Positions 8,891 to 63,807 of a DNA stretch of 64,000 nt are shown piece after piece. The first letter of the stretch is position 1; every line of letters begins with the position of its first letter. Position numbers and translations under genes: made by a program. The stretch is from Pelagomonas calceolata (lineage: Eukaryota): contig CAKKNE010000006.1 of assembly GCA_918797485.1 (NCBI GenBank), positions 248,001-312,000 on the forward strand, in the 5' to 3' direction. A model generated the notes under the pieces. It saw only the letters and a program-made list of their open reading frames with translations. It did not search any database and was not told where the DNA came from.

Positions 8891-11800
8891 TCACGAGACA
8901 AGCTCCGCCTCAAGCGCCCTCGACGCCATCGCCTTCTCCCGCACGAGCTCCGGCGCCGTCGCCGTTTTGAGCGCGTCGACCGCGACGCCCAGCGCCCCGC
9001 GCGCGGCACTCCGCACCGAAGAAAGCGAAAAGGGCGCCGGCCCGCGCCTTTCTTCAAACGCCGTCGCGTTCTGCGAATCGGCCAGCAAAAGCCTTAAACG
9101 TTCGAGCCAGGCGCTCGCCGTCGCCGTCTCGAGGACTTCTGAAGAAGGCAGCGGCTTTAGTAATTTCTCCGTCAGCGTCGACAAGACGGCCGAGTTATCC
9201 CCCTCGAGCCACGCGAGCGTGTCGTACCAGCGCAAACAAGTCACGTGTAAAACGTGGTCCATGGACCGCGTCCTTCTCTGTAGAGCGCCCTCGAGCCACA
9301 GGTCATAATCCGAGGCGAGCCCCCACTTGTATTCATTATCATCGAACGCGGCGGCGCGCTTCAGTAATGATAACGGGGGCAGGGCCAGGCCCGGGTCCCG
9401 CCAGGCGTCGCCTAGCAACTCCAAGGCTCTTTGACGCGTCTCCTTGGCTACGGGCTTCGAGAGCTCGTCATAATTTGTTCTGTCGTAGTCGAGACCCCGC
9501 ATATATAAGACGAGCAGCTCGCCGCAGTCGCGCCACCAGGCATTTAACGCTCGCGACGCGGCCGCGCGCTCGTACTCCCGCCGCCTCACGAAGACGTCCT
9601 CGTATCGCGAGGCCATCGCATCATCCCCCAGCCGCTCCAGAAATCTCTTCGTGACTCTCCTTTGTTGCGAACACCATTCGGTAGCATCCTGGCTGAGGTC
9701 GTAGGGCCTAGCGCGTGGATCGTTCGACGCTAGTTGGTCGCCGTCGTCCGATCTGGCGAGCGTCGGGTTGCCGTCCGCTTCTTGAGCGATGGCCCGGAGC
9801 TCGTCCTCCGAAACGACAGAGTAGCCATACTTGATGCAGAACGCGTCGTAGATGCCCACGCCGTCCATGAAATATTTACCTTGGTCTTTCTGGTCCTCCG
9901 CGACCACGGGCGCGATGTAGTCCATCACTGAAGATGCGACCCTACCTTGCTTGCGCTTCGTCGCGTCGTGGATGTCCTCGAGCTTATGGAGTGCCGAGGC
10001 CCGGAAGTTGTGCCTCAACCCAAGCGTGTGGCCCACCTCGTGCGCGACGACGTCGACCAACCCGGCCTCGACAAACGTCTTGGAGTCGACGTCGGCGTCG
10101 CCGCGCGCGGTGAGCCCAACAGCTAAGCCCTCTAACACTTCATGTGCCGACCGGTGGCAGTGGCGGTGCGCGTCGTGGCCGTGGCCGTGGTCGTGGTCGT
10201 GATCATGGCCCTGCCCGCCGTGGGCATGTCCCACGGGCGCGTGGTCGCCGCGGTCGTGGCGCCCGGACGGGTCGTGGCCGATCGAGGCCTCGTCCAACCA
10301 GCTCCCCGTGAACGCGCGGATCCAGCCCTCGCCGAACACGATGTTCGCGTAGAGGATCTCGCCCGTCCGGGCATCCACGACGGACGGGCCGATCGCCAAT
10401 CCTAGGTCGGGGTAGGGCAGCCAAGTGATCGAGGAAAACCGCACGTCCCCGGGATCATACTCCGCCGGCCAATCAGCATCATCCGGTTCCACGACTTTGA
10501 TGGCTTCCTCGAAGCCAATCGCTTCAAAAGCTGGCTGCCAAGTCAAGACGCCGCGCTTGATGGCTTCCCTCAAAGGTTGTGGTACGGTCGGGTCGAGGTG
10601 GTACGTGATTGGTACCCTGGGTTTGCAGAGTAGTCTCCGACCGTGAGCCAATCGACGTTCGGTGCAGTCCTCATCTTTTTCTAGACGCCTCCTGTGTGGA
10701 AACCAGTGCGTCGGGTGCACCGACAATTCTTCACTAAGTCATTTCTTCGCGATGACGCGGCCGTCCTGGCTCGGTCGAGCGGCGAGGAACCGGCATCGCC
10801 ACGCCATCGAGCAGGCGTCGCGTCGATGGCGTGGAGGACGACGCGACGATTCAGCACGAACGCGCCGTAAAATCTTGATTTCCACACAGGCCGTCGCCGG
10901 TTTATCAAGTTCACTCTCCGGTCCGCATCACTATAGGAAGCATTCGGCGCGTCCGTGTGGAAATCTCTCGGGAGGGGTCCGAGCTGCTCGTACGTCGTCC
11001 CGAAGAAGCCCACCCTATCATCAGCGCGCCTCGGCGTCATCGGCTCGTCGGGCAACAACGCTAAAGAGTAGGCTATTTCTACAGCCGTCGGGTCGTTGGC
11101 GTACACATCTTCCACATCCCACAATGAACACGCGACGACGAACTGCACATTTCGGGGAAACGCCGAGACAGATCGCAATTCGAGCTCGCCGTGGCAGCGC
11201 TTCGGAATATCTACAATCGCGGCGCCTTCGTTCAGGATCCAGCTCCAGGCGTTGTATACGACTGCGCCGTCGCCGCAGTCGCCCGCCTTCGGCAGCGTCG
11301 CGACCCAGCCCACGGCACCCAGACCGTCCTCGGCGGCCGCCGCGTACGTGTCCGTCACCGGCCTTACACTTAGGGGTGGCCGCGTGACGCGCGCGTCGCC
11401 GCCGTGTGCTGATTCTCTCAATGTGAAATAGCTGTCCTCGACGCCGACGCCGTAGTGGGCAAAGCCCGCGTCGCGGCCGGTTGTCCTTCGTGTGGTAGCT
11501 ATCACCGTGAACGGCGCGGAGAGCGTTTCGTTGGGGATCGTCAGGAGCAGCGACTGGCTCGCGTAGTCGGCGTGCGCGTGCCACGTCGCGTTCGTCGCGT
11601 TTCTAGCCGCGCAGGCTTGCTTGGCCGGGTCCGGCGGTGGTGGCGGAGGGGTCAGTAAGGTAGCCAGCGTGAGCTGCAGCATTTCTAGAGTGGTCGCGAG
11701 CGACGGCTGCCGCGGCGTCGCGGCGACGGCGTAGGCGATGAGTGCGACGACGACCGCGGCGCCCGACGCGCCGCAGCACGCGCGGAGCCAGCGGCGTTTC

Positions 11801-11907
11801 CTTTGCGGTGGTGGCATGGGTCTGCTGCCGTTGCGCGACGGGCTCGACGGGCCCATCAGTTCGATGCCGTCCTCCTCCGAGTGGTGTACTGGGTTGTACT
11901 GCACCAT
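8891..11907 (-). CDS. Membrane-anchored metzincin zinc metalloprotease, DUF5117/EcxA-like (exons 11907-10898, 10691-8891; ~936 aa)
   Basis: HEVGHTLGLRHNF zinc motif and SVMDY Met-turn; MTPRRADDRVGFF and the spliced INRRRLEK...PITYHLD; N-terminal TM helix. One intron joins two track ORFs in frame. Confidence 0.87.
10692..10897 (-). mobile_element. Introner intron (GC-AG, 206 nt)
   Basis: TIRs CTGTGTGGAAA / TTTCCACACAG; internal hairpin CCACGCCATCGA-N12-TCGATGGCGTGG; degenerate 8-bp TSD GCGACGGC vs GAGGCGTC. Removal restores the frame; a GC donor at 10891 is also in phase. Confidence 0.85.
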
Positions 11908-12136
11908 GGGTTACGGCGAGGTGCGGCGGCAGTTTTTTACGGCCGTTCCTGGCTTTTTAGCACCGCTGCGGTAGCGCCGGCCCAGTGGGTTTCGGAGATG
12001 AGTTAGGCAATGAGGGTTACGGATGCTCTGAGGGCGCAGGAACCGAATGGCTGCTAATTTTAGACCACAAAGGCGATACGAGCAATCGTCAGCTGTGCTC
12101 CCGACGCGAATCGCGCTGTGCGGCCTGAAGCTGCTC

Positions 12137-16604: not shown

Positions 16605-16654
16605 CTTTACTAGTATGTAGTACGCCGCCGCCGCGAAGACTAGAGAGACCATAC

Positions 16655-18244: not shown

Positions 18245-18301
18245 CTTTGCGGTCCCTCCTCCTCAGTGCTATCTGTTCAGTGTGCCTGCGGGTGGCGGGC
18301 G

Positions 18302-18389
18302 GTGAGCGCTCTCGAGTTCGTGCGGTGCGGCGACGGCGTGTTGGGTGTGAGCGCTCTCGAGTTCGTGTGTCGACGGCGTGTTGGGTGTG
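18302..18389. repeat. Imperfect tandem duplication (~45 bp) upstream of RPS25
   Basis: gtgagcgctctcgagttcgtg...cgacggcgtgttgggtgtg occurs twice. Confidence 0.8.
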
Positions 18390-18852
18390 CCAGGCGCCCG
18401 CGGCAAGGGTGCAGAGCCAGCGTGTAGCCGTGCTCGGCGCGCTCGAGTAGAGCGGCGGCGTGGCTTCGTGTGGTGCAGCGACGCGTGCTGGCTGGGCCAG
18501 GTGGCTGCGCTCGGGGCGCAGAGCCAGCGCGTGGCCGTGCTTTGCCGCCGCGCCGTGTTTTTTAGCCGTATAAGCTGCGCTTTTGTGAGCTCGCTATATA
18601 CGTCGCCTACGGCTCCGCTGGCGGCCCTCGCTTCGCACACCCGTGTTCGCAGTGGTTCAAAGGGCTCCGGTAACACACCGAATCGGTCTATCAGTCCTCC
18701 CGCGCAGCGTAGTTTGCAATAAACTCGGCGCTCGCTGGTCTGAATTAGCAAGTTTAGGCAATCCCGAAACTAAAAGCAAACAAAGGCGTCGCAGCCGCCT
18801 GCCGGCCCAGGAGAGCGCTCCGCGACAGGTGGAGGGCTTCGTCGATTTTTGA

Positions 18853-19933: not shown

Positions 19934-20018
19934 AACTTACTTGTACCCTGCGCGATGGCGTGGCGATGGTTCCACGCCATCGACGCGGCGTACATATGGG
20001 GCTAGGCGTCAATCAAAC

Positions 20019-21206: not shown

Positions 21207-22821
21207 TCACTTACTCCTCGGCGCGCAGAACGCCCCGCGACACCGATAGGTAGTCCGCGCGAGGACCTCGGCCCTATTGGTCTTCGACACCAGACCAGGC
21301 TTCGCCGCGATGGCCCCCATCGATTCCAGCGACTTCTCCGCATCTAGTAGAGTTTGCAAGTCGTCTTTCCGAGGCTTCGGCTGGCCGGCCGGCTCGCCCT
21401 CTTCGGTAAGAAAGGAGAAGGCCCGCCGGAACGACGACGGCCCGGCCTCTATATTGTTTTTGAGGTGCGCGGGCACGACGCGCCTAAAATCCCATTTGCA
21501 GACAGCATCGACCCAGTCCAGCGTCTCCACCGGATTTCTGTTGAGTATGAGCGTCTGGATGATCGGCGCGACCAGTAAAGCATCTTTGCTATCACCAGAT
21601 AAAGCCCGGAACGCTTTCACATCATCCCGCGCCCAGTCCCACGGGTAGATACCGGCAAAGTCCGCATTGACGTCCGGCCGCCGCTCTGACCAGGACTGAG
21701 GTACGGAGTGAATATCAATAGCAGCAGGCATGAAATATAAACCAAAAAGTTGTACTCGGCGCCATCCTTTTCGTAATTGATTCATATCGGACGGGTCGAT
21801 CCTATCAAGAATGCCGTCGCGGGCATGGTAGAGTAAAGGCTTCTTCGCGGCTTCGTCGAGCAGAAAGATCTTCGGGATGTCTGCTGAGACTTGCTGCACG
21901 GCGTCCGTGACGAAAAGAGATTTCGTGGGTTTGTGGAAGAAGGCCGTCTCGCCGTAGGCGCCGTCCCGCGAGATGAAGGGCCCCAAGGTCGCCTGCTCGA
22001 AGTCGTGGGCCCATGGGGTGTCCGCCGACGATGCCTGCGCGGAACGACGCCGTCGCGGAACTCTCCCTGACGAGACGCGTAGACTCCCACGCGGCCACGT
22101 CGACGGCGTCGAGGCGGTGCGGTCTCATGAAGACGCCATCGCCGCGACCCCGGCAAGTTCAAGTTCATTTTTCACGCAGAGTCAGCACCGGTAGGACTCT
22201 CGTCCTTCCGACCGGGAAGCCCGTCAACTCCGGAGGTAGATCAAGAGGAAAGTCGTACTGCCCCGGCTGGAGCCACACTGTCGCCTGGGGAAATTTTTGA
22301 GAGAAGACGCCGGCGTACGTCTTGTGTTCGATGGCTACGGTCCCGAGCACGACGTGCTTGACGGGGCCGTGTTCTCTCTCCAGCGAGCGGACCATGTCCA
22401 AGAGTTCGCGCGTCGCGGCGATCGGGTTCAGGATCCAGAGGCCTCCTCCACTCAATTTCACGATCGACATCCTGACTGGAACTTGCACGTTCAGGATGCC
22501 GAATTTCTGGTCTATGGTCCAGACCTGACCGGGTACGATCGTCTCCAGCGGTGCGGACCGCTTCGCTTTGTACGGTCCCACCGGCAGGACGCCCCACAGG
22601 CCATAATCATACGGTTGAGGCTCGCCGCTCGCCGCGGCGCTCACCGCGAGGAGGCCGCCGCCCACCAGCGCCGCTCGGCGGTCGACTCGTGGTTCGTCGG
22701 GGACGTCGTCGAGCGTGCCCGCGTTTTGGATGGTGCGTCGCTGCGTCTGCGGCTGGCTGATCGGCTGTAAAGCCAACGCACAGCTTGATGCCCATAACAC
22801 AGCGAGGGCGGCGCCACGCAT
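21207..22821 (-). CDS. DUF4336 family protein, probably plastid-targeted (exons 22821-22189, 22034-21207)
   Basis: VWTIDQKFGILNVQVPVRMSIVKL, HGPVKHVVL...EHK, FFHKPTKSLFVTDAV, LLVAPIIQTLILNR, WDFRRVVPAH. Confidence 0.85.
22035..22188 (-). mobile_element. Introner-like intron (GT-AG, 154 nt)
   Basis: GTGCTGACT-CTGCGTGAAA...TTCCGCGCAG degenerate TIR with a CGATGGCG core; restores the frame RVLP|ASSADTPW. Confidence 0.72.
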
Positions 22822-24509: not shown

Positions 24510-24810
24510 TAAGGGGGAACTCTGTGAATCTACGCGACTAGTTACCGGCAAGTAGAAGAGCACCTGCTCGCGGCGCGCGCGTGACGGCGTTGGCGGCGCG
24601 GAGCCTTCCTCAAGGTATCGCGTTGATGGCGTAGAAGTGGTGTGTGCCGCCTCCTCCACGCTATCGAGCAGACGCAGCGCCAGAGACATCGTCGCGTCGA
24701 CGGCATGGACTGGCTGCGGTGACGCGTCGACTCGCGAGCCGTCTCGCCGTCGAGCCTGAGGCAGTACTAGTAAGGAGGAACTCTGTGAATTTTACGCGAT
24801 CGAGAGATAA

Positions 24811-34141: not shown

Positions 34142-35718
34142 ATGCGCACCCATGGGCTCCTTCCTCGAGGACCTGCTCGAGCCGGGCACTGCCATCAAAA
34201 TGGTGCCGGTCGCCAACGCGGCGCTCATAGCACTCATGGTGGTGATGCTGGCAAGTGCCGTCGCGTGGCCGAACATCGCGATCCATCTGTACGCGATGAC
34301 CGGGCTCGCCCTGGGCCTCTTCGGCTCGCTCAACTGGGTCGCGAAAGAGCTCCAGCGCGAAAAGGCAGACTAGCACTCCTGCTTTTGCTGCACGCCGTCG
34401 ACGCCGTGAATCTGTACGATGTAGTCAGACGGCCGCCGCCGCGTCGGAGCGCGCCTTCATTCTTTGAAGTGCCTGCGTCGAACGGCACGCTCGTCCAGGT
34501 GCCCAAGTTGATCTACGCGACGGCGCACAAGCGCCACCGAACTGCGGAGCTGGTGAAGAAGGCGTTCGACGCTGGTTTCCGAGGTGTGGACACGGCGCAC
34601 GGCGAGCGGAAGCGGTACAACGAGAGCGCCGTCGGCGAGGCTCTGGTCGACGGCGTCTTTCTGTGCATAAATCAAATTCTCGCGGCGCGGCACATCAACG
34701 CGACGCCAGCTCGATGGCGTGGCGGTTGTGGGTCTTACACCACTCGATTCAGTCATCACGGCCTGCGCCCGGCTTACTGTTTGATTTGCGCACAGGCGTC
34801 TTCGTGCAGCTCAAGGTCCACTACACGGCGTCGTCGTCGGGCGATGCCGGGCGACGGTGCTACGCGGCGGCGCGGCGCGGCCTCGACGAGCTGGGCGTGG
34901 CTCGCGTCGGCGGTCTTTTATTGCGGGGCCCGTCGGAGGAGGCGCGGCAAACTAGCAAGCTGACAGACGACGACGTCGCGGCGTGGCGCGCTGTGTGGAA
35001 ATCAACCAGTGTGTCGGGTGCACCCGATAATTCTTCACTAAGTCAATTCTCGGCGATGACGTGCCCGCGCTGGCTGATACGCGTCGTCGTGAGAGACCCA
35101 CGCCGCCACGCCATCGAGCAGGCGTCGCGTCGATGGCGTGGAGGACGAAGCGATCACGCGCCGTACATTTGATTTCCACACAGGTGGCGCGCGCTGCAGC
35201 GCTTGGTGAAGGAAGGCCGCACCGATTTGATTGGCGTGTGCAACTTCCCGCCGCCACTCCTGGAAGAACTTCTACGATTGGACGGGCCTAGATGTAGCCT
35301 GCACCAGACACGGTTGCGAGCCGACCGCGCGTTCAACGGCGAGGACCGCGCTTTAGCTGAAAAACATGGCGTCGTGCTCCAGGCTCCTGGGCTTGTGACG
35401 ACGAACGCGCCCGCGCTGCGGCGGTCCTCGGCGCTGTCGGCGCTGGCGGCGAAGCGGGGCGCGACGCCGGAACGGACGTTGTTGGCCTTTGCTCTGCGGC
35501 TTGGTGTCGTCGCCGTCGTCGGTTCCGCGTCCCCGAAGCACGTCCTGGACGACCTCGGCGCTGTGGAGTTGGCGGCTTCGTTGTCTCCTTCCGACATCGA
35601 CGGCGTGCTTGCTGCCCATCCGGATCGGCACAAACCTGATACGCGGCGGGGGATGCGGCGCGGGCCCAAAAAACGGAAGCGGTCCCTGCGCGGCCGCGGC
35701 GGCGGGGCCCGCGTGTGA
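34142..35718 (+). CDS. Aldo-keto reductase family protein (exons ?-34652, 34796-34982, 35184-35718); 5' end uncertain
   Basis: VPKLIYAT, AFDAGFRGVDTA, RYNESAVGEAL, VFVQLK, WRALQRLVKEGRTDLIGVCNF, LAAKRGATPER. Two introner introns restore the frame. Confidence 0.82.
34152..34373 (+). CDS. Pkr1-like V-ATPase assembly factor (small 2-TM ER protein)
   Basis: MGSFLEDLLEPGT...N.ALIAL...IHLYAM..LALGLFGSLNWVAKEL fits the Pkr1 pattern as recalled. Confidence 0.7.
   Translation: MGSFLEDLLEPGTAIKMVPVANAALIALMVVMLASAVAWPNIAIHLYAMTGLALGLFGSLNWVAKELQREKAD
34653..34795 (+). mobile_element. Introner intron (GC-AG, 143 nt)
   Basis: TSD GCGTCTTT / GCGTCTTC; TIR CTGTGCATAAATCAAA / TTTGATTTGCGCACAG (14/16). 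Confidence 0.9.
34983..35183 (+). mobile_element. Introner intron (GT-AG, 201 nt)
   Basis: Perfect 8-bp TSD GTGGCGCG at 34983 and 35184; TIR CTGTGTGGAAATCAA / TTGATTTCCACACAG; internal 12-bp hairpin. Confidence 0.95.
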
Positions 35719-45778: not shown

Positions 45779-47639
45779 ATGCTGCGGCTGCGGACGCTGC
45801 TGCTCATCGCGGCGGCCGCCACGGCGACGACGACGACAACAACAACGACGGCCGGCCCCCACGACGGACGGACGGACGGCCCGACCCCCAGCAAGGCCCT
45901 CACGGCCCCCGCGACGTCGGCCGCCGTCTCCGCGGGCCCGCCCCGGACGGACGTCGCGCCGCCCGGACGAACGCGGGTGCGCATGGTCGTGTCCGGCCGC
46001 GACCGGCACACGCAGTTCTGCATTGGGGAGTTGGTGTTTCTGGACTCCTCAGGTAGAGAAGTAGCAGCTTCAAAAGCCACGGCGAGCGCGCCGCGCGCCC
46101 AGAAGGGCTTCGAGCCCAAACTACTCAGCGACGGCCGCCTGCACCACGACTTTTGCAGCGCCGAGCCGACGGGCTGGGTGTCGTTGGATCTTGAGGTGCC
46201 CCTACGCGAGTTAGCCGCGTATAGAATAGGATCGGACTGTGGGGAAGACACGCCGACGGACTGGACCCTGGAAGCCTGCGACAGCTGCGTCCACTCGGAT
46301 GAGGAAACGTGGGAAACGTTGGACGTGCGCACAGCAGAACCGTGGCGAAGTGGGTGTGACGGCGAGTGGCGCGACTATTCGATACAGAGGTGGAGAGTAT
46401 TGAGAATATCATCAGGAGTGCAGGACTGGTGCTTGGATGCTTTGAGATTGAATGGGGAAGAAAACAAACCGCTACGAATTAATAGCGCGAGGCCGGTCGC
46501 CGCGCCGGGCGCCACCGAAGCGTCAGGCGCGCGCGACTTCGCCCAGCGCGCCTCCACGATATCAAGGCTGGTGGGCATCGGCGGCCCGCCCTCGGACAAC
46601 GGGCAGCCGTGGTGCGGGACCGTGACGATCTGTGTGGAAATCAGATTTTGGGCGCCCGCCATCGACGCGATGCTGTACCTATAAATGCGTCTGCTCGATG
46701 GCGTAGAGTTCACGCCATCGACGCGACGTTGTCCCCTTGGCCGCGTCGGCTCGATGGCGTGGAGGTGCACGAAGGTCTCCGCAATATTTCTCAGGATAAC
46801 CTAACTCACTGGTTGATTCGACACAGGTCACGATGGGCGCCTTCGAGCCAAGTATGGCGACGTTCTGCGCGGACCTCGTGCATGAGAAGAGGAGCTGTGG
46901 TAGCTCAAGAGTCCTTGGTAAACGGGACACGGCCTCGGCCTGCGCGCGCTCTGTGCACCTTGATGATGAATGTAGCGGTCAGCGCTTCGAGTTCGATTCT
47001 GATAGTTCACACTGCGCGTGCTGTGCGTCCTCGGCGACGAAGCCCGGCGTCGGTTCTGTGTATGAGTACAACTACTGCGCTTCCCTCGTTGTTGATCTGC
47101 AACCTCAAGGTAGGGTACCTGTGGTAGCCGTACGCATAAGACGACCACAGAACGAGGCGCCAGCACCGATGAAATTGCGCGTGGACGGGTGCCTCTGGGA
47201 CCGGTCTCCACACGATGGGAAGCGGCTCCCCTTCGGCGGCTGCCGCCTCTGGAAGCGCCTCGCGACGGATACGAGAATCCAGTTTAACGGAGACGGCTGG
47301 GCCTTACTGTCGCTGCCCGGCGGCGTCGCCATAACGAAGTCCGCGCCGCCCTCTCATTTTTTCGACGAACTGGCGACGTCGCCCGGAGTGGGCACCGCGC
47401 GCGGCCCCGGCCAGGCGGCGCCGCGCGCGGTCGCCGTGGACCTGGGCGACCACGTCTGGGCGCCGGAACCCGACGGCGTGAAACTGCGGCGCATCAAGCT
47501 GACGCAATCTCATTTGCACGACATGTCGCGGATGAGTTCCGGTAGGGTCGTCTCGGCGACGTTCGCGCGCAATGTCAGTGGAGACACCTTGCTCGGGCGC
47601 AGCCGGGGCGACTCGAGCGTGATCAATATACGGATGTAA
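45779..47639 (+). CDS. Secreted Cys-rich protein with a discoidin/galactose-binding-like domain (exons 45779-46621, 46827-47639; 551 aa)
   Basis: Signal peptide and Thr run; ATAS...LLSDG...WVSLDL...YRI...PTDWTLE...WETLDVR; spliced WCGT|VTMGAF. Confidence 0.75.
46622..46826 (+). mobile_element. Introner intron (GT-AG, 205 nt)
   Basis: TSD GTGACGAT / GTCACGAT; TIR CTGTGTGGAAATC / GATTCGACACAG; two internal CGCCATCGA...TCGATGGCG hairpins. Confidence 0.92.
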
Positions 47640-51900: not shown

Positions 51901-54900
51901 TGGCGAAGGCGTGGGTCACGTGGACCGGGGACGTAAGTGCGGGCTTACATCGGAGGGCCTTGCATTTACGAGGGGCCTTGGATTGCCAGAGGTGCGTCCA
52001 GCTGTGGCTCCAACGGAAGCGGGCGCGCGCGTTCCGCAAATGGTCTGGGCGCATACTTGTATTAAGAGGAACGAGCGCCGCGATCCGCCACTTGACACGG
52101 GTGCGGCGGCGCGTTCTCTATAGGATGCAATCTGCAGATCTGAGCCGGGCCTTCTGGACCTGGTACGACTTGTATTGTGAACGACGGGCCCTCGACCTGA
52201 AAGGTGATGAACGAGCGTTAACGTTACTCAGGGTCCTGGGGCGGTGGCCGCGACGGGCCCAATCGAAGGCCTGGCGGAGCTGGGAACTACGAATACGATT
52301 GCTAAGGCAGACGGAGCGATGTGTGAGACGGTGGCGGAACAAGCGCCACGCGAGGGCAATGAGGGCCTGGACGGAACATGTATGGGAGCGTAAATCTCGT
52401 AGAGACGCCCTGGACGGCGCCGCTCGGACCATGGGCGTCTGCGTTGCGGCGTGGTCGCGCAAGAAGGTCTACGGAGCGTTCCGCGCCTGGTCCCGGCGGC
52501 GCGTCCATCTGACAAGCTTAACTGACGCGGCTCGACGGCTCCACCGTCTTAAATCACAATCCTTGCGACGCTTGCGGTTCCTTCATGTTGGAAGGGGCTT
52601 CACGACCTGGTATCGCTTCACCCATTCCATGCGCATGCTTGACAGTGTCCATTCGACGCACCGCCACATGCTGTCGAGGATCGTGAAGAAGTGGGTGCTC
52701 CGGACGCAAAGTGTTGCCTGGAGGACGTGGTCGCGACGCGTCGTGTTGCTGCGTTTACTCGCCAAATCAGTAATGAGGCTCGTGAGGCGGGAGGCGTCGC
52801 GAGGGCTGATGAAATGGATTGCCGTCCTCAAGAGAGATAAAAGGGCGAAGGCGGCTCTACGACGTGTGCTCACGATGTGGACGAAGCGGCGCTTCACGCG
52901 CGCGTTCCGGACGTGGGCCGGCCGCTTGTTTTTGTTCAGAGATCGGCGCCAAGCCGCGAAGCGTCTACAAAGGATCAAGGCCTCGGTCATCCACCAAATC
53001 CAGCTACGTAAATTAGCACGCGCTCTAAGGACGTGGCGCGCCTACGGCTCGTCGTGTAGGGCGCTGGATCGGAAGCTGACCCGCAACGTCTTCACATTGA
53101 AGAAAGTACTCAGGCGATGGCTCAACCAGACGAAGGCCGTAGGCTTCAAAACCTGGCACAAAAATTCTATATGGAAGCGCGACTTCCGGCGATGCGTCAT
53201 GAGGATGCTGCGGTTCCACCTCTCGCAAGGCTTTGCTGTTTGGGCCGAAGGGTCCTTCGAAATCGGTGTGCGAGGCGACGCCGCCCGACGTTTACGGAGG
53301 AAGATGTTTATCGTTGCCAAGCGCATCATGCACAACAAGTTGCATCAAGCATTTGTGTCCTGGCTTTTGGTCCTCGACGAGGCGAGAGATGAAGAAGCTC
53401 GTAAAGTCGAGGCGTCTTCACAGATGCGCCGCTGCGTCGAGAGGTGGCTCACGCGAGGACTGCGGGACGCCTTCGACAGTTGGGCCGACGCCGTCGTGTT
53501 GAGGAACGACTTTGAAAAGTGTGTGAGGCGGATGCTTTCCCGGCAATTGTCAGCGGCATTCACGACGTGGTCCGGTATTAGTTTCCTGCACAAGTTGGGT
53601 AGAGCGGATAGACGAGGCGCTGCTCATACTATAAAACGGACGTTGACACTGTGGCACTCTAGGAAGAAGTTTTCTGCCTTCCGCAAGTGGTCCGGCCGGG
53701 CCTCGTTCCTGTCGAGGCGCTCTAGAGCTCTCCAACGGACCTTACTGATAAAGCGGAAGACCTTCCACCGCTTCCGGAACCAATTGTGCGCCAAGGGCTT
53801 TCGGACGTGGGTCGAGCACGGCCTGAGACGACTTGTATGGAAACGCTCTCTGATTAAGCAGCAACAAACCGCGAAAAGAGTGCTGAGGCGGTGGCTCAAG
53901 CGGCACAAGTCGAGGGCCTTCCAGACCTGGATCATGCGCGTCATTTTCTTGCGGTGTCTGCGGCGGTGCCTGCTGCGGTTATTGCGACGGCGGTTGGCCG
54001 TAGGATTTACTACTTGGTCCGGGCGCTCCTTTAAGTTACGAGATGCACGACGACGGTTCCAGCGTCGAGTCTTTGGCGTGAGAAGGTGTGTGAGACGGCT
54101 GATGCACCGAGAATTGATGATGGGACTATCGACGTGGTCTAAATTTGTCGCACAATGCAAGGAAAAAGATATTTTTGAGAACTTCAAGGAGATCCAGGAT
54201 TTGAGGCAGCACCGCCAGCGCCTCGCGACCTTCTCGAAGTGCGTCAAGGCGTGGCAGAGGCGGGACCGCGGTCGTGCCTTTCGGACGTGGGCTACTACTA
54301 CTATGTTCCTGCGGAATCTGGGACGGTGCGTATCGAGGATGTGTCATAGGCAACTCGCTGCGGCTTTTGGGAAGTGGAGCGGCCGCAGCTTTGCACTGTC
54401 AAAAAGACGCAATCTTCACGAGGACGCGTCGAAGCGACTAACACGCAATTTGCAGCGGTGGCTGCGCTGGCGGCGGAACCGCGCGTTCCTCAAGTGGACC
54501 GCGATCGTCGGTGCCGCCAACCTCTCACATAGGGTTCTGATAACGGCGACGCGCGTCCTAAGGAGGTGGCTCCTGCGGCAGGCTTCAATAGCCTTCCGCA
54601 CCTGGCACTCCCTGACAATGATGGAGACGCAGTCGAAGCAGTTCGAGGCGCTGTGGGATTCGAATATGGGCCGTACTAGGAGTAGCGTCGTGCGGCGCCT
54701 GACGCGGAGCTTAGCAAGATGGTCAAAACAACGGAAATCCATGGCCTTCAACGCCTGGGCGCGTAGTGCGTTCGGCGACTACCACGGCGACCTGTTAAAG
54801 TGGTCCGGTGCGGCTCTGTGTCGACGGGCGCTGGAACGGCGGCATCGAGGCATCGTCCACTCGAAGCTTCTGAGGTGGCGCCGGGCGACGTTCCTGGTGA

Positions 54901-57900
54901 GAAACGCCGAGAAGCATCGAGCGGTCCTCGCGGACGCTGAAATGAGACGCCGCCACTCTGAGAGTGAACGCAAGGCCCACGCCGCCGCTCGCTTGCATCG
55001 GTTCCTGCGGTCAAAACGCTACGGGTGCTTAAGGTTGGGCTTCGACGCCTTCGAAGGGCACACCCATAGCCTGATCGAGGCCCAGGCCCATCTCACAAAG
55101 GTGCGATCCGAGAGCTTGAAGCGATGCTATTTGAGATGGAGCCGCGGTACGCGACGCGAGGCCTTCCGCATCTTGCAGGGACGGCATGCGACGCTCGGGA
55201 AGAGGCAGAGCGCGTGCCGGCGCTTCCGGAGAACGTTGGGTCGCTTCGAGGCGTTCTCTGTTTCCACGGCCTTCCAGCAATGGGCGAGAACCATCAGAGG
55301 CGACGCGCGGGCCGAAGTTATATTAAGAAGGTGCCTCGGGCGCCTCGCGAACCGGGCCGTGGGTCGCGCCTGCGCGGCCTGGTGGCGCGTCGTGTTTGCG
55401 TCGAGGCGGCGCGAGGAGCTCCTCGAGCGGGCCTCGTCATTGTTGTGGCGCGGCGGCGTGACCGCTGCTATCATAAGGTGGCGCCGGTCCGTGAACCTGC
55501 GGACGCGCCTGACGCGGCGGGAGGCGACGCAGCGCGCTGCTTTACGTTTAGTAGCAAGAGGTCTCGAGGGCCGCCTCTCCACTCAAGCTTCGGCTCTGAA
55601 GCGCCACGCGCTGAACGCGTGGTGGTCTCAAATCGCCAAGCGCGGCTTCGTGGAGCAGCGCCTCCGCACCATCGCCACCCGCGTGGGGGCCGCGCGGACG
55701 CGGACCGCCTTCGGGACGTGGCGCTCTCACAGTCTTGCAACGGAGAAGCTGGCCTTCTCCCAGAATCACGCCGCGCATGCGATCAAGCGCGTTCTAGGGC
55801 GGTGGACGAAGCGGCTGCAAGCGCAAGCCTTCGAGGTGCTCGCGCGCCGCGCCGCGACGGCTAGGTTCTTGATTCGTATATTGATGAAGATGCTGCGTCT
55901 CAAGGTAGCGTCGGCCTTCGCGTCGTGGATTGGCGACGTGGCCTTGCTGAAGAGTCGCAAGAACGCCCACAAGGCGAGCGTCTTGCGGTTACGAAGGGTC
56001 GCGAGACGCATGGCGCGGTGCCTGAGCTACTGGCTGAAGCGTATCCAACTAAGAGCATTCCGGACGTGGGTCGACCTGTTGTCGAGGGAGGTTTCGAAAC
56101 TTTATGCCACGAAACACGTCGGGTTCATCGTGACGCGGTGGCGTCTGAGGCAGGTCTCAAGAGCTTTAAGAGCGTGGCGCTACACGACCGGTCTCACATT
56201 ACAGTCGGAGCACTTTGAATTGTTGTGGCGCGGTTCGTTGGGGCGAGGCCAGGACGCGGCCGCGAGACAACTGCAGCGGTGTCTCACGAGGTGGTTCGGC
56301 AAGAAGCGAACCCTGGGCTTCCGGGCCTGGGTGTCTTATGTGGGCGACGCCGCGTGCCGCCAGAATAGTGCTTCGTTATGTCTCCGCATCTGTAAGAAGG
56401 TCGCGGCGCGCGCGTCCCGACGGCGGTTATTGCTGTGGAAGCGCGCCTCGTTTTTAGCGAGGAATGCGGAAAAGCACCGGGCGGTGCTCGATGACGCCGC
56501 GTTGCGGCGGCGCCACGCGGTTTCGGAGCGGAAGGGCCACGCCGTTGCTCGCTTATCGAGGTACCTCCGGAGCACGATGAATGGCAGGGTGCGGCGCGCC
56601 TGGACTGATTTGAAAATAAATGCGGAGCGGGGCCGGTCTCTCTTGCAACAGGACGCCTTCCTCGCGCACCAGCGCAGGCATGCGCTCCGAAGATGCGTTT
56701 CATATTTGAGGAGCGGTGCGAAAGCTATGGCATTCCGAGCCTGGTTAGTCAACGCCGATCTATTGAGGACGAAGACGGTGACACTACGACGCGTTTTGGG
56801 GAGGTGGACGAAGCGCGTCCAATACGAGGCCTTTGAAGTGTTGGCAAGGCGCGTCGCCACCGCGCGGTTCCTGAGCCGGGTCCTGCAGAAGATGCTGCGC
56901 CTCAAGGCATTGACGGCGTTCACGACCTGGACCACTCATATACAAAGGCGCCTCACTTCCCATAGATCGTTGCTCTCGCGCGCCCGGGCGTTGCGCCGGT
57001 GCGCCAAGCTCGTCAAGGGAGGGCGGTTATCACTCTACTTCCGGGCCTGGGCCTTGAATATAAGAAGACGCAGCCGCGCGGAGGCCGCCTGTCGCCGGAT
57101 ACAGCGCGCCACGACGCGCTACGAGCGCGCTACACGATTGCGATACGTGCGAAGGTGGCTTCAGCGCGTGCGAGATGATAAGAGGGCTTCCATTATCTTG
57201 AGGAAGTGCCTCGGCCGCTTCGCGCATCGGGCCGTGGGCCGAGCGGCGGCAAAATGGTGGGGGGATATCATCATTGAAAGAAGACGGGAAGACCTCCTAA
57301 CGCGGGCCACCGAACTCTTGTGGCGCGGGTCGGCGACAAGTGCCATCTTGAGGTGGAAGTGCACGGTGCAGATTATCGGAAGGTCGAGCGCTGCGTTCCA
57401 AAAGTTACGAAGGCGGCGGGGCGTGGCTTTAAGGTTGCTGAAGCGGGGCCTTGTCGGACGTACGACCAGGGACGCCGGAAATCGATTGCGGCGCGCGTGG
57501 TTCAGATGGCGGGGCCGAACTAGGTTACTGAACGCCCTAGCAAGGAGGCTCTCCCGATTGGCGACGGCCGAGGCGCGCTACCGACTGAGGCAAGCCGTTC
57601 GGGACTGGGATCGGTTCGCCCAGGCCAAAATTCTGATCGAGTTAGATGATCACGGTCTGAACGCTGTTAGGTTTGAGGAGGCTAGGGCGAATGCGTTGCG
57701 CTTAAAACGCCAGCGGTCGACGGTGCGCCACGTCGCGAACGCGCTGCTGCGGCCGGCGCTGGCCCGCGGCTTCCGAGCCTTCCGCGGCCACATGATGCGC
57801 ATGCGGCGCCTCGCGAAGGTCTGCCAGCGGGCGCACATGCACGCGCGCTGTACCGTACAGAAGGCGTTCTTCACGATGAAGGCCCAGCGCACGAGAGGAG

Positions 57901-60900
57901 ACGCGTTGTCCATTGTCCAAGCCTCGGGCCGGTGGGTCCGCGAGGCCGGCGCCCGAGCCATGCGGGTCTGGTTACGAAGGCGGGCGCGCACGTTCGTGCT
58001 GTGGGCCTGGCGCATTTGGATGCTTAATATCAACGAGCAGCGTCTTGAAAACCAGCGGCGCCTGACGTCCAACTTAAATCTGGTCCAAGGGGCGTCGCGC
58101 CTGGAACGGACGCTGAAACGGTGGCGCTTCGCTACATTAGCGACGGGTCTCCAAACCTGGCTTGACCGCGCGGCTCTACTAAGGCACCGCCACGACCGCA
58201 ACACGGCCACGGCGACGGCCCAGATCTTCCGCTCTTTACATAGGAAGTGGACGCAGAACGCGCACCGGAGACTCGCGGCGTGGCGCCGCGCCGCGTTCCT
58301 GCTGCGCAACGCCGAGAAGCACCGTTTAGTATTAGACGAGGCGGAGGCGCGCCGCGCCTTCGCCACGACGAAGCGCAAGGCGCACGCCGTGACGCGCCTG
58401 GCGACCTGGGTGAGGCGGTGGCACGACGGTAAAAGGGCAAGGGCGTTTGTGCGGTGGTGCCGCTTTGTGTTGAACCACGAAGCATCTTGTTTGAGAGGAG
58501 GCCTGCGCGCGGACTGTTTAAAACGCTGTCTGCAACGAGGAATCAATCGTTGGGCCCTCCACGACACGTCAAGAGCGTTCCGGGCCTGGAAATCTTATAG
58601 GGACGCCTTTAACAACGACGCGCTGCGATACGGAGCCCAGACGGCTAAGTTCAAGCGCCTGCTCGCCAAGCACGCGCGCCGCACGACATCATACATACTT
58701 CGGGCGTGGTCCCAAAAGGCGCGCGCCGAGGCCCGGGCCGAGCGCATTTTGAAAAGGTGCCTCGGCCGCGCCGCGCACCGGTCGCTCGGCGCGGCCTGCT
58801 CGAGCTGGTACGACTTTTTGCGCTTCCAGGAGATCACAGAAACACGTGCGGCCAAGCTCGCGCGCTGCGCGCGGCGCCTCCGGCAGCCGCAGCAGTTCCG
58901 CGCATTCAACAGATGGCGCCGCGTCCTCGCGCTGTCCACGCAACGTTCAAATGCAGCCGCGCGCCTCGAGCGCCTGGAGCGGCGCATTGTGCGGCGATTG
59001 GTGAATGCGCGGCTAGGGGCAGCTATGGACGTCTGGTGCGCCCAGCGGCATAAAGTGTCGAGGGCCGAGCGGGCGCGGCGCCGTTCAGTTGAGGCGCTGC
59101 GCAAGGTGCTCACGCGGTACGCGTCCCGTGATAAACGAGCGGCCTTCCGCCTGTTTGTGGACGTGACGCGGCTTCATCAGACGCAGAGCCGCGCGGCCCG
59201 GCAGTTGGTGCGTGTTTTCAACCGAGCGCTCCGGAAACAGAGGGCCGCCCACCTCGTTACGGGGATGCGCCATTGGCGCGCGTACGTCGTCGAGGCGCGC
59301 GCGGCGGACCACCGCCGCGATCTACGCCTCCTCGACCTGAGGAAGTGCGTGGCGCGGTTCGGTCGACGGTCCCTCGCCTTTGCTTTTTTGAGGTGGGAAT
59401 CATGTATAGAGGCCCAGTATCGATTGCGGCGCCTGCTGTCGAACTGCGTGCTCCACAAGCGCAAGGCGGCGTTCCGAGCCTGGGCGGAAGGCGTGATCGA
59501 GCGCCGCGACACGTCGGAGGCGGTGCGCCACCTCTGGCATATTCACCACCGCATCTTTGTGAAGTGGTCTTTACGGAGACAGTCGTGCGGGTTCGTGGCG
59601 TGGCGCGACGTCGTAAGGACGCAATCGAATCGAACCCGCGCCCTCGCGCGCGTCGCCCGGCGCTTTTCTTCCTACCGGCGCGCGCTCGCGTTCCGCACGT
59701 GGCTGCGCCTGGCGGCGCGCTCGCGGCGCCGGGCCGAGCGACTTAAGCGGCGGAGCGACTCGAATGATTCATTAAGAGCTCGGTCGCTCCAGCTGCTGCG
59801 GAAGGTTTTAGTCAGGTACTCGCGGAGCGCCGCGCGGCTCTACTTTGTGAGCTGGGCCGCGCGCGTCGACGCCCGGTCGCGAGCGGCCAAGCTGCTCACG
59901 AAGTGCGCTAGACGGTTAGCGCATTTGGCCGTCGGCAAGGCGTGTTATGCGTGGTACGATTTGATAGTCGAGGATCGAAATCAGAGGGAGGCCCTGGACG
60001 CTATGTGTAGATGTCTGAAGCGGTTCCAGCACGCGCGGCTCTGGGCCGCGTATCGCAAATGGATGCTGGGGGCCCACATTGCGCAAAGGCGCTTGCACGA
60101 AGCGAAGCGGATCTATCTCATCAGGCGCAAGGCCCTGCGGCGCTTCCGTTCAATGGCCAAGGCTCGAGCCTTCACGACGTGGCGCGTCATGTCAGAGAGG
60201 TGTAGACGCATGGCGAACAAGTCGTTGGTATTGTCCATCAAGCTCAAAGTACCTATAGATAGGTGGACGCACCGGAAATTGTACAGAGCCTTCGGGACCT
60301 GGCTCGAGCTTATGATGGGCCTCCGCAATATGACGAGGGTCCTCAAGCGCCTCGGGAAGCATCACCTCGCGATGTCCTTTGATGCTTGGAGCGGCCACCA
60401 CTTTACAATGGCCCGGAAGCGCGACGCCGCGGCGCGGATCCGACGTATTGAAAGGCGCTGCGTTTTGAGGTTACAGGCGCGCCAGGCTTCGCGAGCGTTG
60501 CGGACCTGGGTTGCTTACGTCAAAGCCTGCCGCCTGCTCGAAAGGCGCTTGCTGCGCGTCGAGCGCATCCTCGCGAAGACAATCAAAAGGTGGGTCTGTC
60601 GCGTCAAGAGCGCCGCCTTCAACAAATGGAGGGACGGTTTGGTCTTTTTGAAGCATTTAGAAAGACTTTTACTAAGATTCGTCAAGCGGCATTTGTTCGT
60701 GGCGTTCCAGACGTGGTCCGGACGTTTACTCATCATCGACCGGCGACGAGCCGCCGCGAAGCGGCTGCACCGCTGCCAGCGGCGGGTGCTGAGGCACTTT
60801 TATAGTGTAGCGGTGTGGATGGCGCTCCAGAACTGGAAGCAGCTCTGCTGGGAACTGAGGGCTCAAGATGGAAGGACGGCGAGTGGGCTCGGGATCATGG

Positions 60901-63807
60901 AGAGATACTTGAGACGGTGGCTGAACCGTAAGGTTGGGCGCTACCTCACCACGTGGGCCTCCATAACAATATGGCTGCGCAACCTCGAGAAGGTTGTGCA
61001 GCGGTTGCGACGGCGGCGCGAGGCGATCGCGTTCGGGACCTGGAGCGGCGAGCGCTTCCGGTTAGAAAGGCGCCGCGATGTGCTACGGAGGGGCCTCAAG
61101 GCCCAGCGGCGGTGGCTTCGACGCCTGCGCCACTTCTCGGCTCAAAGAGCGTGGCGGAGCTGGATGAGTCTCGTCCTTTCCTGTAGAGAAGTTGACAGGA
61201 CGCGCGGCGTCATCCGCAGCATCCTCCACAAATCAGTGAGGAAGTGGGTCAATCGGAAGGTCGCCAAAGCTTTCACCACATGGTCTTCCAACATCGTATT
61301 CCTGCGCAATGTGTACAGGGTCGTCTCGAGATTAGAACACCGTTTCGTGGCCAAGGCCTTCGACACGTGGTCTCTGAGAAACTTCGCTCTAGACAAGAGG
61401 GTGGATTCGATCCGCCGAGTGTTGTTGCAGAAGAAACGATTACTTAGACATTTGTGTCTGAGAAGGTGCTCGCGCGCGTTTTTGGTCTGGCGCTCCCGGT
61501 GTCTCGAAGGTCACATACTGGACAAAGAGCAGGAGCTCGGGTTCTACAAGCTGCGCAAAGCTCTGAGGAAGTGGCTCCGGTGCAAACAAATGAGAGCCTT
61601 CGAGACCTGGTGTTCATTGGTCGAATTCAAGCGGAACCTATCCAGAGTTTTGATGCGGTTCACGAAGCGCAAACTCGCGGTGGGTTGGCGGACCTGGACG
61701 GACCGGAACTTCACGCTTGTTAGGAGACGCGATTCCTTGCGACGTGCACTGCGGGCCAAGGACCGTATCCTGCGGAGGATGATCCTCAAGAGCTGCTCGA
61801 AGGCATGGAGGACGTGGCAGCCCCACGTGGTGTGGGATAGAGCTGTCGCGGCGGACCGGGTGCTGGGGTTGCGGTGTTTGCGGCGATGCTTGTCGAGATG
61901 GGCGAAGCGCGACGTTTATGCGGCCTGGCGCACGTGGGCCGCGAAGACGAGGAGGACGCATCTTGTGAGGAGGTGCTGCTTGTATTTGCAGAAGCGGCGC
62001 CTCGCCCTCGGCTACCGGGCCTGGGCGGCGCACGTCACACGCCTCACGAAGAAGGAGGCCGCCGTCGTGCGTTTGACGCGGCTGGCCACCGGAACTCTCC
62101 GGAAGTGGCGCCGCCGGGGCCTCGCGAAGGGTCTGCGGGCCTGGCGCGGCTTTGTGGCGGAGTGCACAGCACTCGAACGTAAATTCGCGACGGTCGTGCG
62201 CGCGCTCCGGGCGGGGTTGCAGTGGTGGGCGACGGGTCGCTTGAAGGTAGCGTTGAGGCGGTGGCACGCCACTATCGCCTTCTTCGACGATCTCGAAAGG
62301 TGCGTCCTGCGCATGTTGCGAAGGCGCCTCGCGGTCGGCTTCCAGACTTTGGTGTCCGTAGTGGGCCTCGCCACAAAGCGCCAACGGGCCATCCACCGGG
62401 TCCTGCGATCAAAGAAGCGTAGTATTAGGCACATGCAGCATAGGAGACTAGGCCGGGCCCTGCGCGTTTTATGTCTCAACGGCTCGTCAACAAGTCAGAG
62501 CTCCAAGGACAAGGGCACGGCCGTGGCTTTGCTCAAAAGGTACGCGCGGCGCTGGGAGGGCGGCCAGAAGCATTTGGCGGTGCGGATTTGGTGTAGAAAT
62601 GCGGCCGCGCGAACGTCCAAGGGCGCGGCGGCGCTGCGGGCTCTTAACATAGGCCAACGGGCTCTGAGGAGGCTTCTTCGACTCCGTCTTTCAATGTCAA
62701 TGAACGCGTGGCGTAGTAGAACGGTCAACGATCATCGGGCGATGGCCATCCTGGCCAAGGTCGCGCTGCGCTGGAGGGCCGGCGCCGTCAGCAGATCATA
62801 TAGGAGGTGGGCGTTGACGGCGCGCCGGTTCACGGCGCGCAAGGTCGCCATGGTTCAGTTGGGGAGGGCCCTGCTGCGGTGCGGCGCCAGGCACCGGCGC
62901 AATGGGCTCGGTGCTGTTCTGGTCGCGTGGCGCGCACTATGTGTGATGGAGTCCGACTCGGACAAGGACAAGCGCCACGCCATTTCTGTCTTAGCGCGGG
63001 GCGCTTTCAAGTCAAAACGCCTCGCGCTCATCCATGGCGTGCGGACGTGGCGCGCCCACGCTCTTATTATGAAAGACGACGCGGCGCGGGCGCGCATCCT
63101 GCACCTTTTATCAAATCGCTGCGGCCGCCGCGTTCTTCGTAGAGCCATCAACCAGTTGCGCCCTGTGTGGAAATCAACCAGTGTGTCAGGTGCTCATTTC
63201 TCGGCGATGACGCGGCCGTCCTGGCTCGGCCGATCGGTGAGCAACCGGCATCGCCACGCCATCGAGCAGGCGTCGCGTCGATGGCGTGGAAGACGACGCG
63301 ATGATTCAGCACGAACGCGCCGTAAATTTTGATTTCCCCACAGGTGGCGCCTGAAGCGCACCGCGCCCGCGAAGCGCGCGCTCAAGAGGCACGTCGTCGC
63401 CCGCGTCTCGGCCGTGTCCCGGCGCCAGCTCTTCAAGGCCTTCGTCTTCTGGCGGTCGAGCGCGCCGCGGGCCGCCGAGGACTTCTGGCACGCGAACGAG
63501 TACTTGAGAAGAGCCGTGCGCTCGCGGCGTCCCGCGAGGTGCCTTCTTTTGGCCGTTGCCGTGCGTACGGATGCTCTGCTTTCGCCGCGTGCGCATGACA
63601 TCCACCGCCCCGCGTCGAGGGCCGCGCCAGCAGTCCGAGACGACCCACGCGCGCCGCCACTGCGACGCACGCCCTCGACGCGACCCACACGCGCCGTCGC
63701 CGCCGCCGCGAGCCACGCACACGGTCGCCGCCGCCGCGAGACCCGCCAATAACCCCACAAAAACGCGCAGGTCACCTGCGTCGAGGTCCGCAACGACCCT
63801 TCATTAA
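48915..63807 (+). CDS. Giant (~4,820-4,880 aa) Arg-rich protein with Trp-periodic Sfi1-like repeats
   Basis: 14.2-kb uninterrupted exon 48915-63154 with very many xAFxxW units; continues in frame after the introner at 63344 (NQ|WRLKR). Ends at 63752, or at 63807 if 63539-63770 is spliced. Confidence 0.85.
63155..63343 (+). mobile_element. Introner intron (GT-AG, 189 nt)
   Basis: TSD GTTGCGCC / GTGGCGCC; TIR CTGTGTGGAAATCAA / TTGATTTCCCCACAG; body highly similar to the 10692 and 34991 copies. Confidence 0.94.
63539..63770 (+). other. Possible final intron of the giant gene
   Basis: AG|GTGCCT...AAACGCGCAG|G; joins in frame to RSPASRSATTLH*. Confidence 0.5.

Follow-up and report, generated by a model that had tools for sequence, protein, structure and literature searches.

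Aureococcus anophagefferens carries introner elements, described by Huff et al. in 2016. For Pelagomonas calceolata itself, the genome paper counts 956 putative introner elements (Guerin et al. 2022, PMC9481584, Supplementary Note 3). As described in the available parts of that source, these resemble the elements treated here in having GT and GC donors, an AG acceptor and a conserved terminal inverted repeat (TIR), and the intron length peak near 210 bp in the same paper lies next to the 203 + 8 = 211 found here. The supplementary table of Gozashti et al. 2022, in its available part, marks Pelagomonas calceolata as introner-positive and gives, for one Pelagomonas MAG, four small families of 80–186 nt with target-site duplication (TSD) and TIR entered as '?'. 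A sequence-only reading of the present window, 64,000 nucleotides of P. calceolata DNA, had placed its elements in a known class by reference to Aureococcus; the class assignment stands, and it has to be extended by the earlier report for P. calceolata (PMC9481584, available text). Both the mechanism and such elements in P. calceolata are already in print, and the family described here is probably that of the putative introner elements reported by Guerin et al. 2022.

Five copies of a repeat family, E1 to E5, lie in the window, all of them inside genes (Table 1), and their anatomy can be read directly from the DNA. From TIR to TIR the elements measure 135–198 nt, with TIRs of 15 bp and flanking repeats of 8 bp that match at 5/8 (E1), 7/8 (E2), 8/8 (E3), 7/8 (E4) and 7/8 (E5) positions. 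All five locations given by the sequence-only reading are borne out, its coordinates being those of the intron (5' repeat plus element), and the TSD pairs are as it quoted them. The end of the TIR was set by reads from other loci (1321 + 630), which leave the element exactly before 34991 into heterogeneous flanks. Because the reverse complement of the TIR ends in CAG, an acceptor is possible at either end of the element. The TIRs of E2 and E4 are degenerate, and the subfamily of E4 differs from that of E1, E3 and E5.

Table 1. Introner copies, their parts and related fragments in the window
Feature	Position	Strand	Remarks
E1 element	10692..10889 (198 nt)	-	subfamily alpha; inside met-zincin (DUF5117/DUF4953) gene on minus strand
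E1 predicted intron	10692..10897 (206 nt)	-	GC..AG; TSD 5/8
E2 intron	34653..34795 (143 nt)	+	GC..AG; aldo/keto reductase gene (Pfam)
E2 parts	5' TSD 34653-34660; element 34661-34795; 3' TSD 34796-34803	+	decayed, alpha-like
E3 intron	34983..35183 (201 nt)	+	GT..AG; TSD 8/8; same aldo/keto reductase gene as E2
E3 element	34991-35183	+	subfamily alpha
TIR, 15 bp, CTGTGTGGAAATCAA	34991..35005	+	perfect in E3
E4 intron	46622..46826 (205 nt)	+	GT..AG; TSD 7/8; gene of 551-aa protein
E4 element	46630-46826	+	subfamily beta
E5 intron	63155..63343 (189 nt)	+	GT..AG; TSD 7/8
E5 element	63163-63343	+	alpha; near 3' end of reading frame of >4,800 codons
Short interior fragment of family	19947..19991	.	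nhmmer E 3e-6
TIR-less interior fragment, beta-like	24616..24731	.	nhmmer E 2e-12

Similarity between the copies is far above chance in blastn (E 1e-59 for E1–E5, 1e-40 for E1–E3), and profiles built from metagenomic copies match all five elements (E 7e-66 to 1e-17), with no match in 10 Markov-shuffled windows. Counting loose TIR pairs is a weak test, with 4 pairs in the window and at least one pair in 12/100 shuffles. TIR-like 3' ends also occur in two further introns, at 22035-22188 and 32699-32770, yet the flanks of these introns match at 3/8 and 2/8 positions, and we did not count them as members because they have no TSD and no profile match. Rfam gave no match, and the 551-aa protein of the E4 gene is without a Pfam match. 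Folding is more stable for the elements than for mononucleotide shuffles (z -2.6 to -5.6), a difference that we set aside as evidence because TIRs and internal palindromes would produce the same signal.

RNA joints fit introns of 143 nt at E2, 201 nt at E3, 205 nt at E4 and 189 nt at E5, four junctions that are observed directly, at the coordinates predicted from the sequence and on the expected strand. Each is carried by raw reads (10 + 3 at E2, 15 + 8 at E3, 3 in X22 and 0 in X23 at E4, 18 + 12 at E5) and by contigs, from X5 and X6 at E2 and E3 and from X5 and X11 at E4 and E5; the raw runs X21–X24 are a single sample, and X5, X6 and X11 are presumed to be RNA. The cut position at E4 and E5 is fixed to within 2 nt, with no other exon-to-exon joint there among the RNA joints listed; for E2 and E3 the listing covers the stronger joints, with 77 weaker ones beyond it. 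Nine equivalent cuts exist at E2, one of them GY..AG, and at each of E2–E5 the single equivalent cut that reads GY..AG on the transcribed strand is the predicted one. When the predicted introns are removed in silico, the frame is open across 5/5 junctions, and protein records equal to the spliced product exist for E1 (P0001) and E4 (P0244). Exact splicing in all five copies, as had been claimed, is thus seen in reads at E2–E5; at E1 the claim has the open frame and P0001 behind it, and the NCBI model P0122 disagrees, using other boundaries (10689-10861) that give 11 extra residues at the site. Gene models can mis-splice such introns at GC donors, and P0122 is a likely case.

The same arrangement recurs in metagenomic data, where 122 matches were obtained, 26 of them without a right end by the search pattern, and 94 complete copies, whose flanks bear no similarity to one another, were analysed. 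Flank identity peaks only at a length of 8 nt, where it reaches 0.82 compared with 0.36 for shuffled pairs, and stays at 0.20–0.33 at other lengths; the duplication, observed directly in this way, is perfect in 42/94 copies. GT or GC opens it on one strand in 91/94 copies, and in 73/73 of those whose TSD matches at 6/8 or better. A confident coding frame could be called in 66/86 copies, which show directly both the GT/GC on the coding strand (64/66; 50 GT, 14 GC), with 2/66 having no GY on the called strand, and the use of both orientations (34 one way, 32 the other). All three insertion phases are used (33/10/23), and no clear case of an acceptor taken from the TSD, as in a minority class of Aureococcus introners, occurs among these 66. 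Mismatches within the TSD are synonymous in 31/59 cases in the metagenomic copies, compared with 26% expected (p 9e-6), and in 5/6 cases in the window, with 3/3 at E1. Inspection of 17 of the 26 matches without a right end found mostly degenerate ends, truncated copies or short loci, and two candidate long elements (L057 and L040) were rejected, their ends being mis-paired. The assignment of the AG acceptor to the TIR and of the GT/GC donor to the first 8-bp copy is confirmed by reads at 4/5 sites and by the statistics of the 94 copies, and the core of the sequence-only reading, including seamless splicing, is supported. We consider it very probable that the five copies of this family are MITE-type introners, non-autonomous DNA transposons that depend on a transposase for their movement.

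No transposase was found in the 62 of the 137 window ORFs that were scanned, or in the 11 ORFs at L023, L059 and L062, three loci whose ends are unpaired; these ORFs encode bZIP-PAS, armadillo or unassigned proteins. Two TIR patterns had no match in viral contigs, and the one match in prokaryotic genome bins, at a contig end, was uninformative. As neither a transposase nor an autonomous copy turned up in the ORFs, loci and contigs searched, we infer transposition from its scars. The mobiliser could be a hAT transposase that itself prefers palindromic targets, with GT at one end and AC at the other as in Hermes-type hATs, and so would pre-adapt the element for introns. The 8-bp duplication agrees with this and is not unique to hATs, and A at target position 7 in 18/66 copies is a weak excess over a background of 18%. 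GY at both ends, however, occurs in 12/73 copies where flank composition predicts ~13, a match that leaves the bias to be explained by donor selection, and the palindromic preference was not supported on this count. The TIR, moreover, starts with CTGTG and not with the YAG-type motif of hAT TIRs, and among the listed annotation rows for P. calceolata a single Tc1-like transposase appears, with no row under the Pfam ids used for hAT, Merlin and MULE. A hAT that prepared its own targets seems to us an unlikely mobiliser, although the duplication length would suit it, and the suggestion of a hAT in the sequence-only reading found no support.

Protein records of relatives indicate empty sites for E1–E4. 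At E1, 9/15 listed members of the met-zincin cluster (79–81% identical) span the site without an insert and the other 6/15 do not reach it; 15/15 listed members of the reductase cluster (81–83%) span both the E2 and E3 sites, and 14/14 listed members of a 69–72% cluster span that of E4, in each case without an insert and with orthologues aligning gaplessly across the four sites. The evidence for these empty sites comes from predicted proteins rather than DNA, and short contigs may be transcripts; the proteins include calls on contigs of 33–111 kb, and a JGI protein call on a 110,971-nt contig occurs in each of the three clusters. The gene callers appear not to splice, judging by read-through products such as P0128 and P0170, the second of which carries an in-frame E2 allele, with E3 absent. 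The sequence-only reading had implied that distant orthologues would not have the same introns, and at E1–E4 the relatives' proteins do span the sites with the inserts absent.

These records bear on a second alternative, that the copies are ancient introns of the ordinary kind, or plain MITEs within pre-existing introns, homogenised by gene conversion. Conversion could explain E1, with an interior 96% identical to the family majority and a decayed duplication, and haplotypes 5–10% diverged in protein also have E1 and E2. However, the reads define an intron made up of the element and exactly one duplication, without further intron sequence, and the insert is absent from the relatives and also from some near-conspecific records, and we judge this alternative very improbable. 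Spread through RNA, in which an excised intron reverse-splices and is then reverse transcribed with TIR and TSD incidental, would suit the position of most sampled copies in coding sequence (66/86 with a confident frame) and the ORF scans without a transposase, but it is already largely refuted and hardly deserves credence, because reverse splicing predicts a single orientation and no duplication (PMC9860276, available part), against near-equal orientations (34 vs 32), a site-specific duplication of exactly 8 nt and a donor outside the shared sequence.

For a family of DNA transposons moved by a transposase, the following course may be proposed. Acting in trans, the transposase would make a staggered cut of 8 nt and insert a 203-nt element there, in either orientation, because on the coding strand each end reads CAG. 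An exonic insertion would be kept if the 8-mer at its target starts by chance with GT or GC, and not otherwise, since in that case alone splicing would take out the element with one duplication and leave the message intact. Later, deletions would shorten the interior, and the duplication copy left in the exon would drift, mainly at synonymous positions. TTGAT within the TIR is a candidate branch site, which is absent from E1. E1 also departs from the clean picture in that its duplication is weak (5/8) despite the 96%-majority interior.

The family comprises three subfamilies, alpha, beta and gamma, which have the same ends and only 27–40% ungapped identity in the interior; alpha and gamma stand in exact register, with 40% identity at offset 0 vs 25 ± 4% at other offsets. 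Exactly 203 nt is the length of 14/94 copies (9 alpha, 2 beta and 3 gamma), the next commonest length being found in 3 copies, and the intact, best-preserved copies of all three subfamilies have this length. TSD scores are higher in the 203-nt copies than in the rest (7.7 compared with 6.4, p 0.002), and the 203-nt copies of the three subfamilies are likely the youngest. We suggest tentatively, with rather more doubt than confidence, that a length-measuring transposase moves only the 203-nt cassette and that presence/absence alleles of the family still segregate in wild P. calceolata. If this is true, one of the ocean's most abundant eukaryotes would allow the birth, fixation and shrinkage of introns to be measured, and part of the unusual GC-AG intron share of P. 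calceolata could be explained. The exact length and the apparent polymorphism offer testable handles on the mobiliser. With a 203-nt cassette the intron is 211 nt long, about the length of one nucleosome repeat; a test for 10-bp WW periodicity in the subfamily majorities showed no consistent signal.

The window provides a clean example of transposon-made introns, confirmed by reads. The available text of PMC9481584 says nothing about TSDs, donor co-option, both orientations, subfamilies, exact length or presence/absence, and what is added here is that three subfamilies with such divergent interiors share the 203-nt length and that TSD mismatches are mostly synonymous. A share of roughly 14% GC-AG introns is attributed to GC content in the available part of bioRxiv 10.1101/2024.10.30.620910, and the GC donors of the family (14/64) would be an additional cause. 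As described in the available parts of bioRxiv 10.1101/2020.10.14.339549, PMC7789003 and PMC10228655, the introners of Aureococcus anophagefferens are alike in their TIR and constant-length direct repeat, in using both orientations, in carrying one splice site and recruiting the other from the TSD, and in their canonical splice motifs and similar length, a likeness by description. Those of Symbiodinium microadriaticum and Polarella also carry the 3' site and take the 5' site from the TSD, which is 4 nt long in these organisms and 8 nt in the P. calceolata family (PMC9860276 and bioRxiv 10.1101/2020.10.14.339549, available parts). The Polarella classes of that pattern form introns in one orientation only, whereas the P. 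calceolata family does so in both (bioRxiv 10.1101/2020.10.14.339549, available part), and the 8-bp rule of donor co-option is now shown for Pelagomonas, where the published tables had left TSD and TIR as '?'.

Five elements of one introner family lie in the window at the places where the sequence-only reading had put them, as borne out by their coordinates, terminal inverted repeats (TIRs), flanking pairs and profile matches. The family TIR is 15 bp long (CTGTGTGGAAATCAA); E3 carries it in perfect form, E2 and E4 as degenerate versions. With respect to the host gene, E3 and E5 lie one way and E1, E2 and E4 the opposite way. Profiles built from copies outside the window recovered all five in a search of the window and gave no match in ten shuffled windows. 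A loose count of TIR pairs is by itself weak evidence, with four pairs in the window and at least one in 12 of 100 shuffles; no additional pair was found within the window.

Elements of the introner family and other features of the window, with joints seen in reads (skip, raw reads in the two runs, contig runs)
Feature	Position	Setting	TSD match	Subfamily	Joint
E1, TIR to TIR	10692-10889	minus-strand gene, met-zincin	5/8	alpha	
E2, TIR to TIR	34661-34795	aldo/keto reductase gene	7/8	decayed, alpha-like	143 nt; 10 and 3; X5, X6
E3, TIR to TIR	34991-35183	same gene as E2	8/8	alpha	201 nt, GT..AG; 15 and 8; X5, X6
E4, TIR to TIR	46630-46826	gene for 551-aa protein	7/8	beta	205 nt, GT..AG; 3 (X22) and 0 (X23); X5, X11
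E5, TIR to TIR	63163-63343	frame of >4,800 codons	7/8	alpha	189 nt, GT..AG; 18 and 12; X5, X11
TIR-less family fragment	24616-24731	profile match			
TIR-less family fragment	19947-19991	profile match			
Intron	18286-18678 (-)	393 nt			GT..AG, read-confirmed
Intron	22035-22188 (-)	154 nt			GT..AG, read-confirmed
Intron	32699-32770 (-)	72 nt			GT..AG, read-confirmed
Intron	63516-63770 (+)	255 nt, without TIR or TSD			GT..AG; 17 + 13 reads
Single frame, E5 and intron 63516-63770 removed	48912-64000 (+)	>4,880 codons			
Met-zincin gene (DUF5117/DUF4953)	8891-11910 (-)				
Ubiquitin-RING(-Agenet) gene	~40365-45640 (-)	three tandem copies, 1.66-1.83 kb, up to 98-100% alike			
Motif beginning GCTAGTGTCTTAC	6368, 12136, 30720, 33986, 40365, 42115, 43775, 45601	near ORF boundaries			

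The claim that splicing restores the protein at all five sites stands for the computed open frame, which is kept at every site once the first repeat and the element are taken out, and in RNA reads for E2-E5. Because of the duplication the cut position can slide at each joint (9, 10, 3 and 3 equivalent positions at E2, E3, E4 and E5, respectively), and at each of these sites exactly one equivalent cut, the proposed one, gives GY..AG (GY, GT or GC) on the transcribed strand. The E2 and E3 joints are among those listed for their stretch, where another 77 joints have weaker support, and for E4 and E5 no rival exon-to-exon joint is among those listed; the raw runs all come from one sample, and the contig runs are presumed to be RNA. 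At E1 the splice is a predicted one, whose product contains the P. calceolata protein record P0001 letter for letter (the second exon is 100% identical to it) and aligns without gaps to orthologues. The NCBI model (P0122, CAH0378551.1) differs, having 11 additional element-derived residues at this site that would fit a GT donor within the element. That model appears to pass over the E1 GC donor (10689-10861), and it also joins the met-zincin gene to a downstream MFS gene.

Reads that leave the element exactly before 34991 (1321 and 630) enter heterogeneous flanks, so the element end is fixed and many loci share the element. In poly(A) RNA both strands are rich in element-derived sequence from other loci, at 34991-35160 and 63163-63343, with a depth at E3 of ~1000 versus ~20 for the host exon; this suggests retained introns or UTR copies genome-wide.

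In metagenome contigs an exact 21-nt end pattern matched at least 121 stretches; 120 loci gave 122 matches, with the right end found by pattern in 96 and a length below 400 nt in 94. No two of these 94 copies share flanks, and at least one (L017) is mis-paired. Flank identity peaks at 8 nt only (0.82 versus 0.36 in shuffled pairs; 0.20-0.33 at the remaining lengths from 2 to 12 nt), the target-site duplication (TSD) is perfect in 42, and it starts with GT or GC on one strand in 91. A codon model trained on the window ORFs gave a confident frame for 66 of the 86 copies with long enough flanks. In 64 of these the coding strand is the one that reads GY (GT in 50, GC in 14), with orientations divided 34 versus 32 and phases 33/10/23; in the other two GY is on the opposite strand, and their strand may have been mis-called. 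Together with the reads at E2-E5, the 8-nt peak and the coding-strand GY uphold the proposal that the TIR gives the acceptor and the 8-bp TSD the donor. A palindromic target preference is unsupported: among 73 well-matched copies 12 have GY at both ends, which is close to the number predicted from composition and gives no sign of one.

Orthologues had been proposed as a further check, and relatives' predicted proteins, some on short contigs that may be transcripts, do span the E1-E4 sites without insert. The E1 site is spanned by three records at 90-93% identity (P0124, P0146 and P0018) and by 9 of the 15 proteins listed for an ~80% cluster; P0125 and P0128 (95-96%) run into the element. Both reductase junctions are spanned by 20 records at 88-100% and by each of the 15 proteins listed for a cluster at 81-83%, and 17 near-conspecific fragments that begin at or after the E3 site are uninformative. 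P0170 contains a short E2 allele, translated in frame, and P0178 and P0206 start within the E2 end; all three lack E3. At E4, whose host protein has no Pfam match and is tied to P. calceolata by named records, the site is spanned by 14 of 14 records in a 69-72% cluster and by 8 of 15 listed near-conspecific ones; some of these eight are JGI calls from contigs of 3-33 kb, and one matches the spliced product at every residue. In each of the three relative clusters a JGI call comes from a contig of 110,971 nt; this is probably a single genomic contig on which none of the four sites is filled.

Of 59 mismatches between the two copies of a duplication, 31 are synonymous in the frame of the host gene versus 26% expected (p 9e-6; three copies with more than four mismatches removed, transition bias ignored in the expectation), and 33 of the 59 fall at third codon positions, which make up 31% of sites. 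Of six such differences in the window five are synonymous, among them the three that E1 has, and for that reason the poor E1 match fits a genuine TSD whose exonic copy has drifted within the limits set by the protein. TSD quality correlates with length among copies up to 203 nt (rho 0.41), and the mean match is 7.7/8 where the length is exactly 203 nt (14 copies) versus 6.4 in the remaining 80 (p 0.002).

By their interiors, with short copies assigned loosely, the 94 comprise 65 alpha, 23 beta and 4 gamma copies (9, 2 and 3, respectively, at 203 nt) and 2 left unassigned. Ungapped interior identity is 81-93% inside subfamilies and 27-40% across them; comparing offsets puts alpha and gamma in register (0.40 at offset 0, 0.25 +/- 0.04 at others) but shows no register for alpha-beta or beta-gamma. 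Only four copies exceed 203 nt (207, 262, 294 and the mis-paired one of 320). The simplest reading is a size constraint on mobilisation, in a small sample collected with a single exact end motif; that the family is still segregating and obeys a length rule of 203 nt we put at somewhat under an even chance.

With the splice junctions, the 8-nt duplication, the use of both orientations and the GY rule all shown, we consider it very likely that a non-autonomous TIR element inserted in trans, the intron being formed from the element and one duplication. Insertion would occur at an 8-nt staggered cut, with CAG supplied by either element end; exonic insertions would survive where the target begins with GT or GC, and splicing would take out the element and one duplication. 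Transposition is what we infer from this, along with selection behind the GY rule, decay by deletion and a putative branch site. That old introns were homogenised by conversion fits poorly and is highly improbable, and spread by reverse splicing, likewise a poor fit, is less probable still. For insertion in trans, a hAT mobiliser is a guess. The window had been said to hold no transposase, and none is found in 62 of its 137 ORFs of at least 150 aa, nor in three loci with unpaired ends; viral contigs gave no match to the TIR, and a Tc1-like gene stands alone among the rows listed in the annotation table. One element end (L121:2653-2673) sits at the end of a contig binned as proteobacterial, which is probably a contaminant from an alga.

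Elsewhere in the window, introns 22035-22188 and 32699-32770 finish in TIR-like sequence at the 3' side and share an interior motif with the family; they are possibly very old copies, with no profile match. The long frame around E5 extends past the window, is transcribed throughout and carries many degenerate Trp-containing repeats, with no Pfam match. The motif beginning GCTAGTGTCTTAC, a similar form of which is carried by metagenome locus L114, is possibly a regulatory site or small repeat. The met-zincin gene has pelagophyte orthologues, most other named matches being bacterial (Planctomycetota and others), and an old transfer is possible.

Our literature searches turned up no paper giving the Pelagomonas 8-bp TSD, subfamilies or exact length, on which Figure S3 and Supplementary Data 3 of PMC9481584 may hold more. 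The available portion of the PMC12130899 main text makes no mention of pelagophytes, and that of PMC9860276 gives no TSD/TIR determination for four MAG families. A preprint (bioRxiv 10.1101/2024.10.30.620910), in the part available, gives GC content as the cause of a GC-AG share of about 14% among introns. The class itself, which the sequence-only reading knew from Aureococcus, is indeed known: PMC9860276, in its accessible text, describes introners with the donor from the TSD and lists P. calceolata as introner-positive, and PMC11282704, as far as accessible, reviews the class. Its occurrence in P. calceolata itself is also already in print: the accessible text of PMC9481584 counts 956 putative introner elements, which combine conserved TIRs with an AG acceptor and donors of both GT and GC type, and places a peak of intron length near 210 bp.
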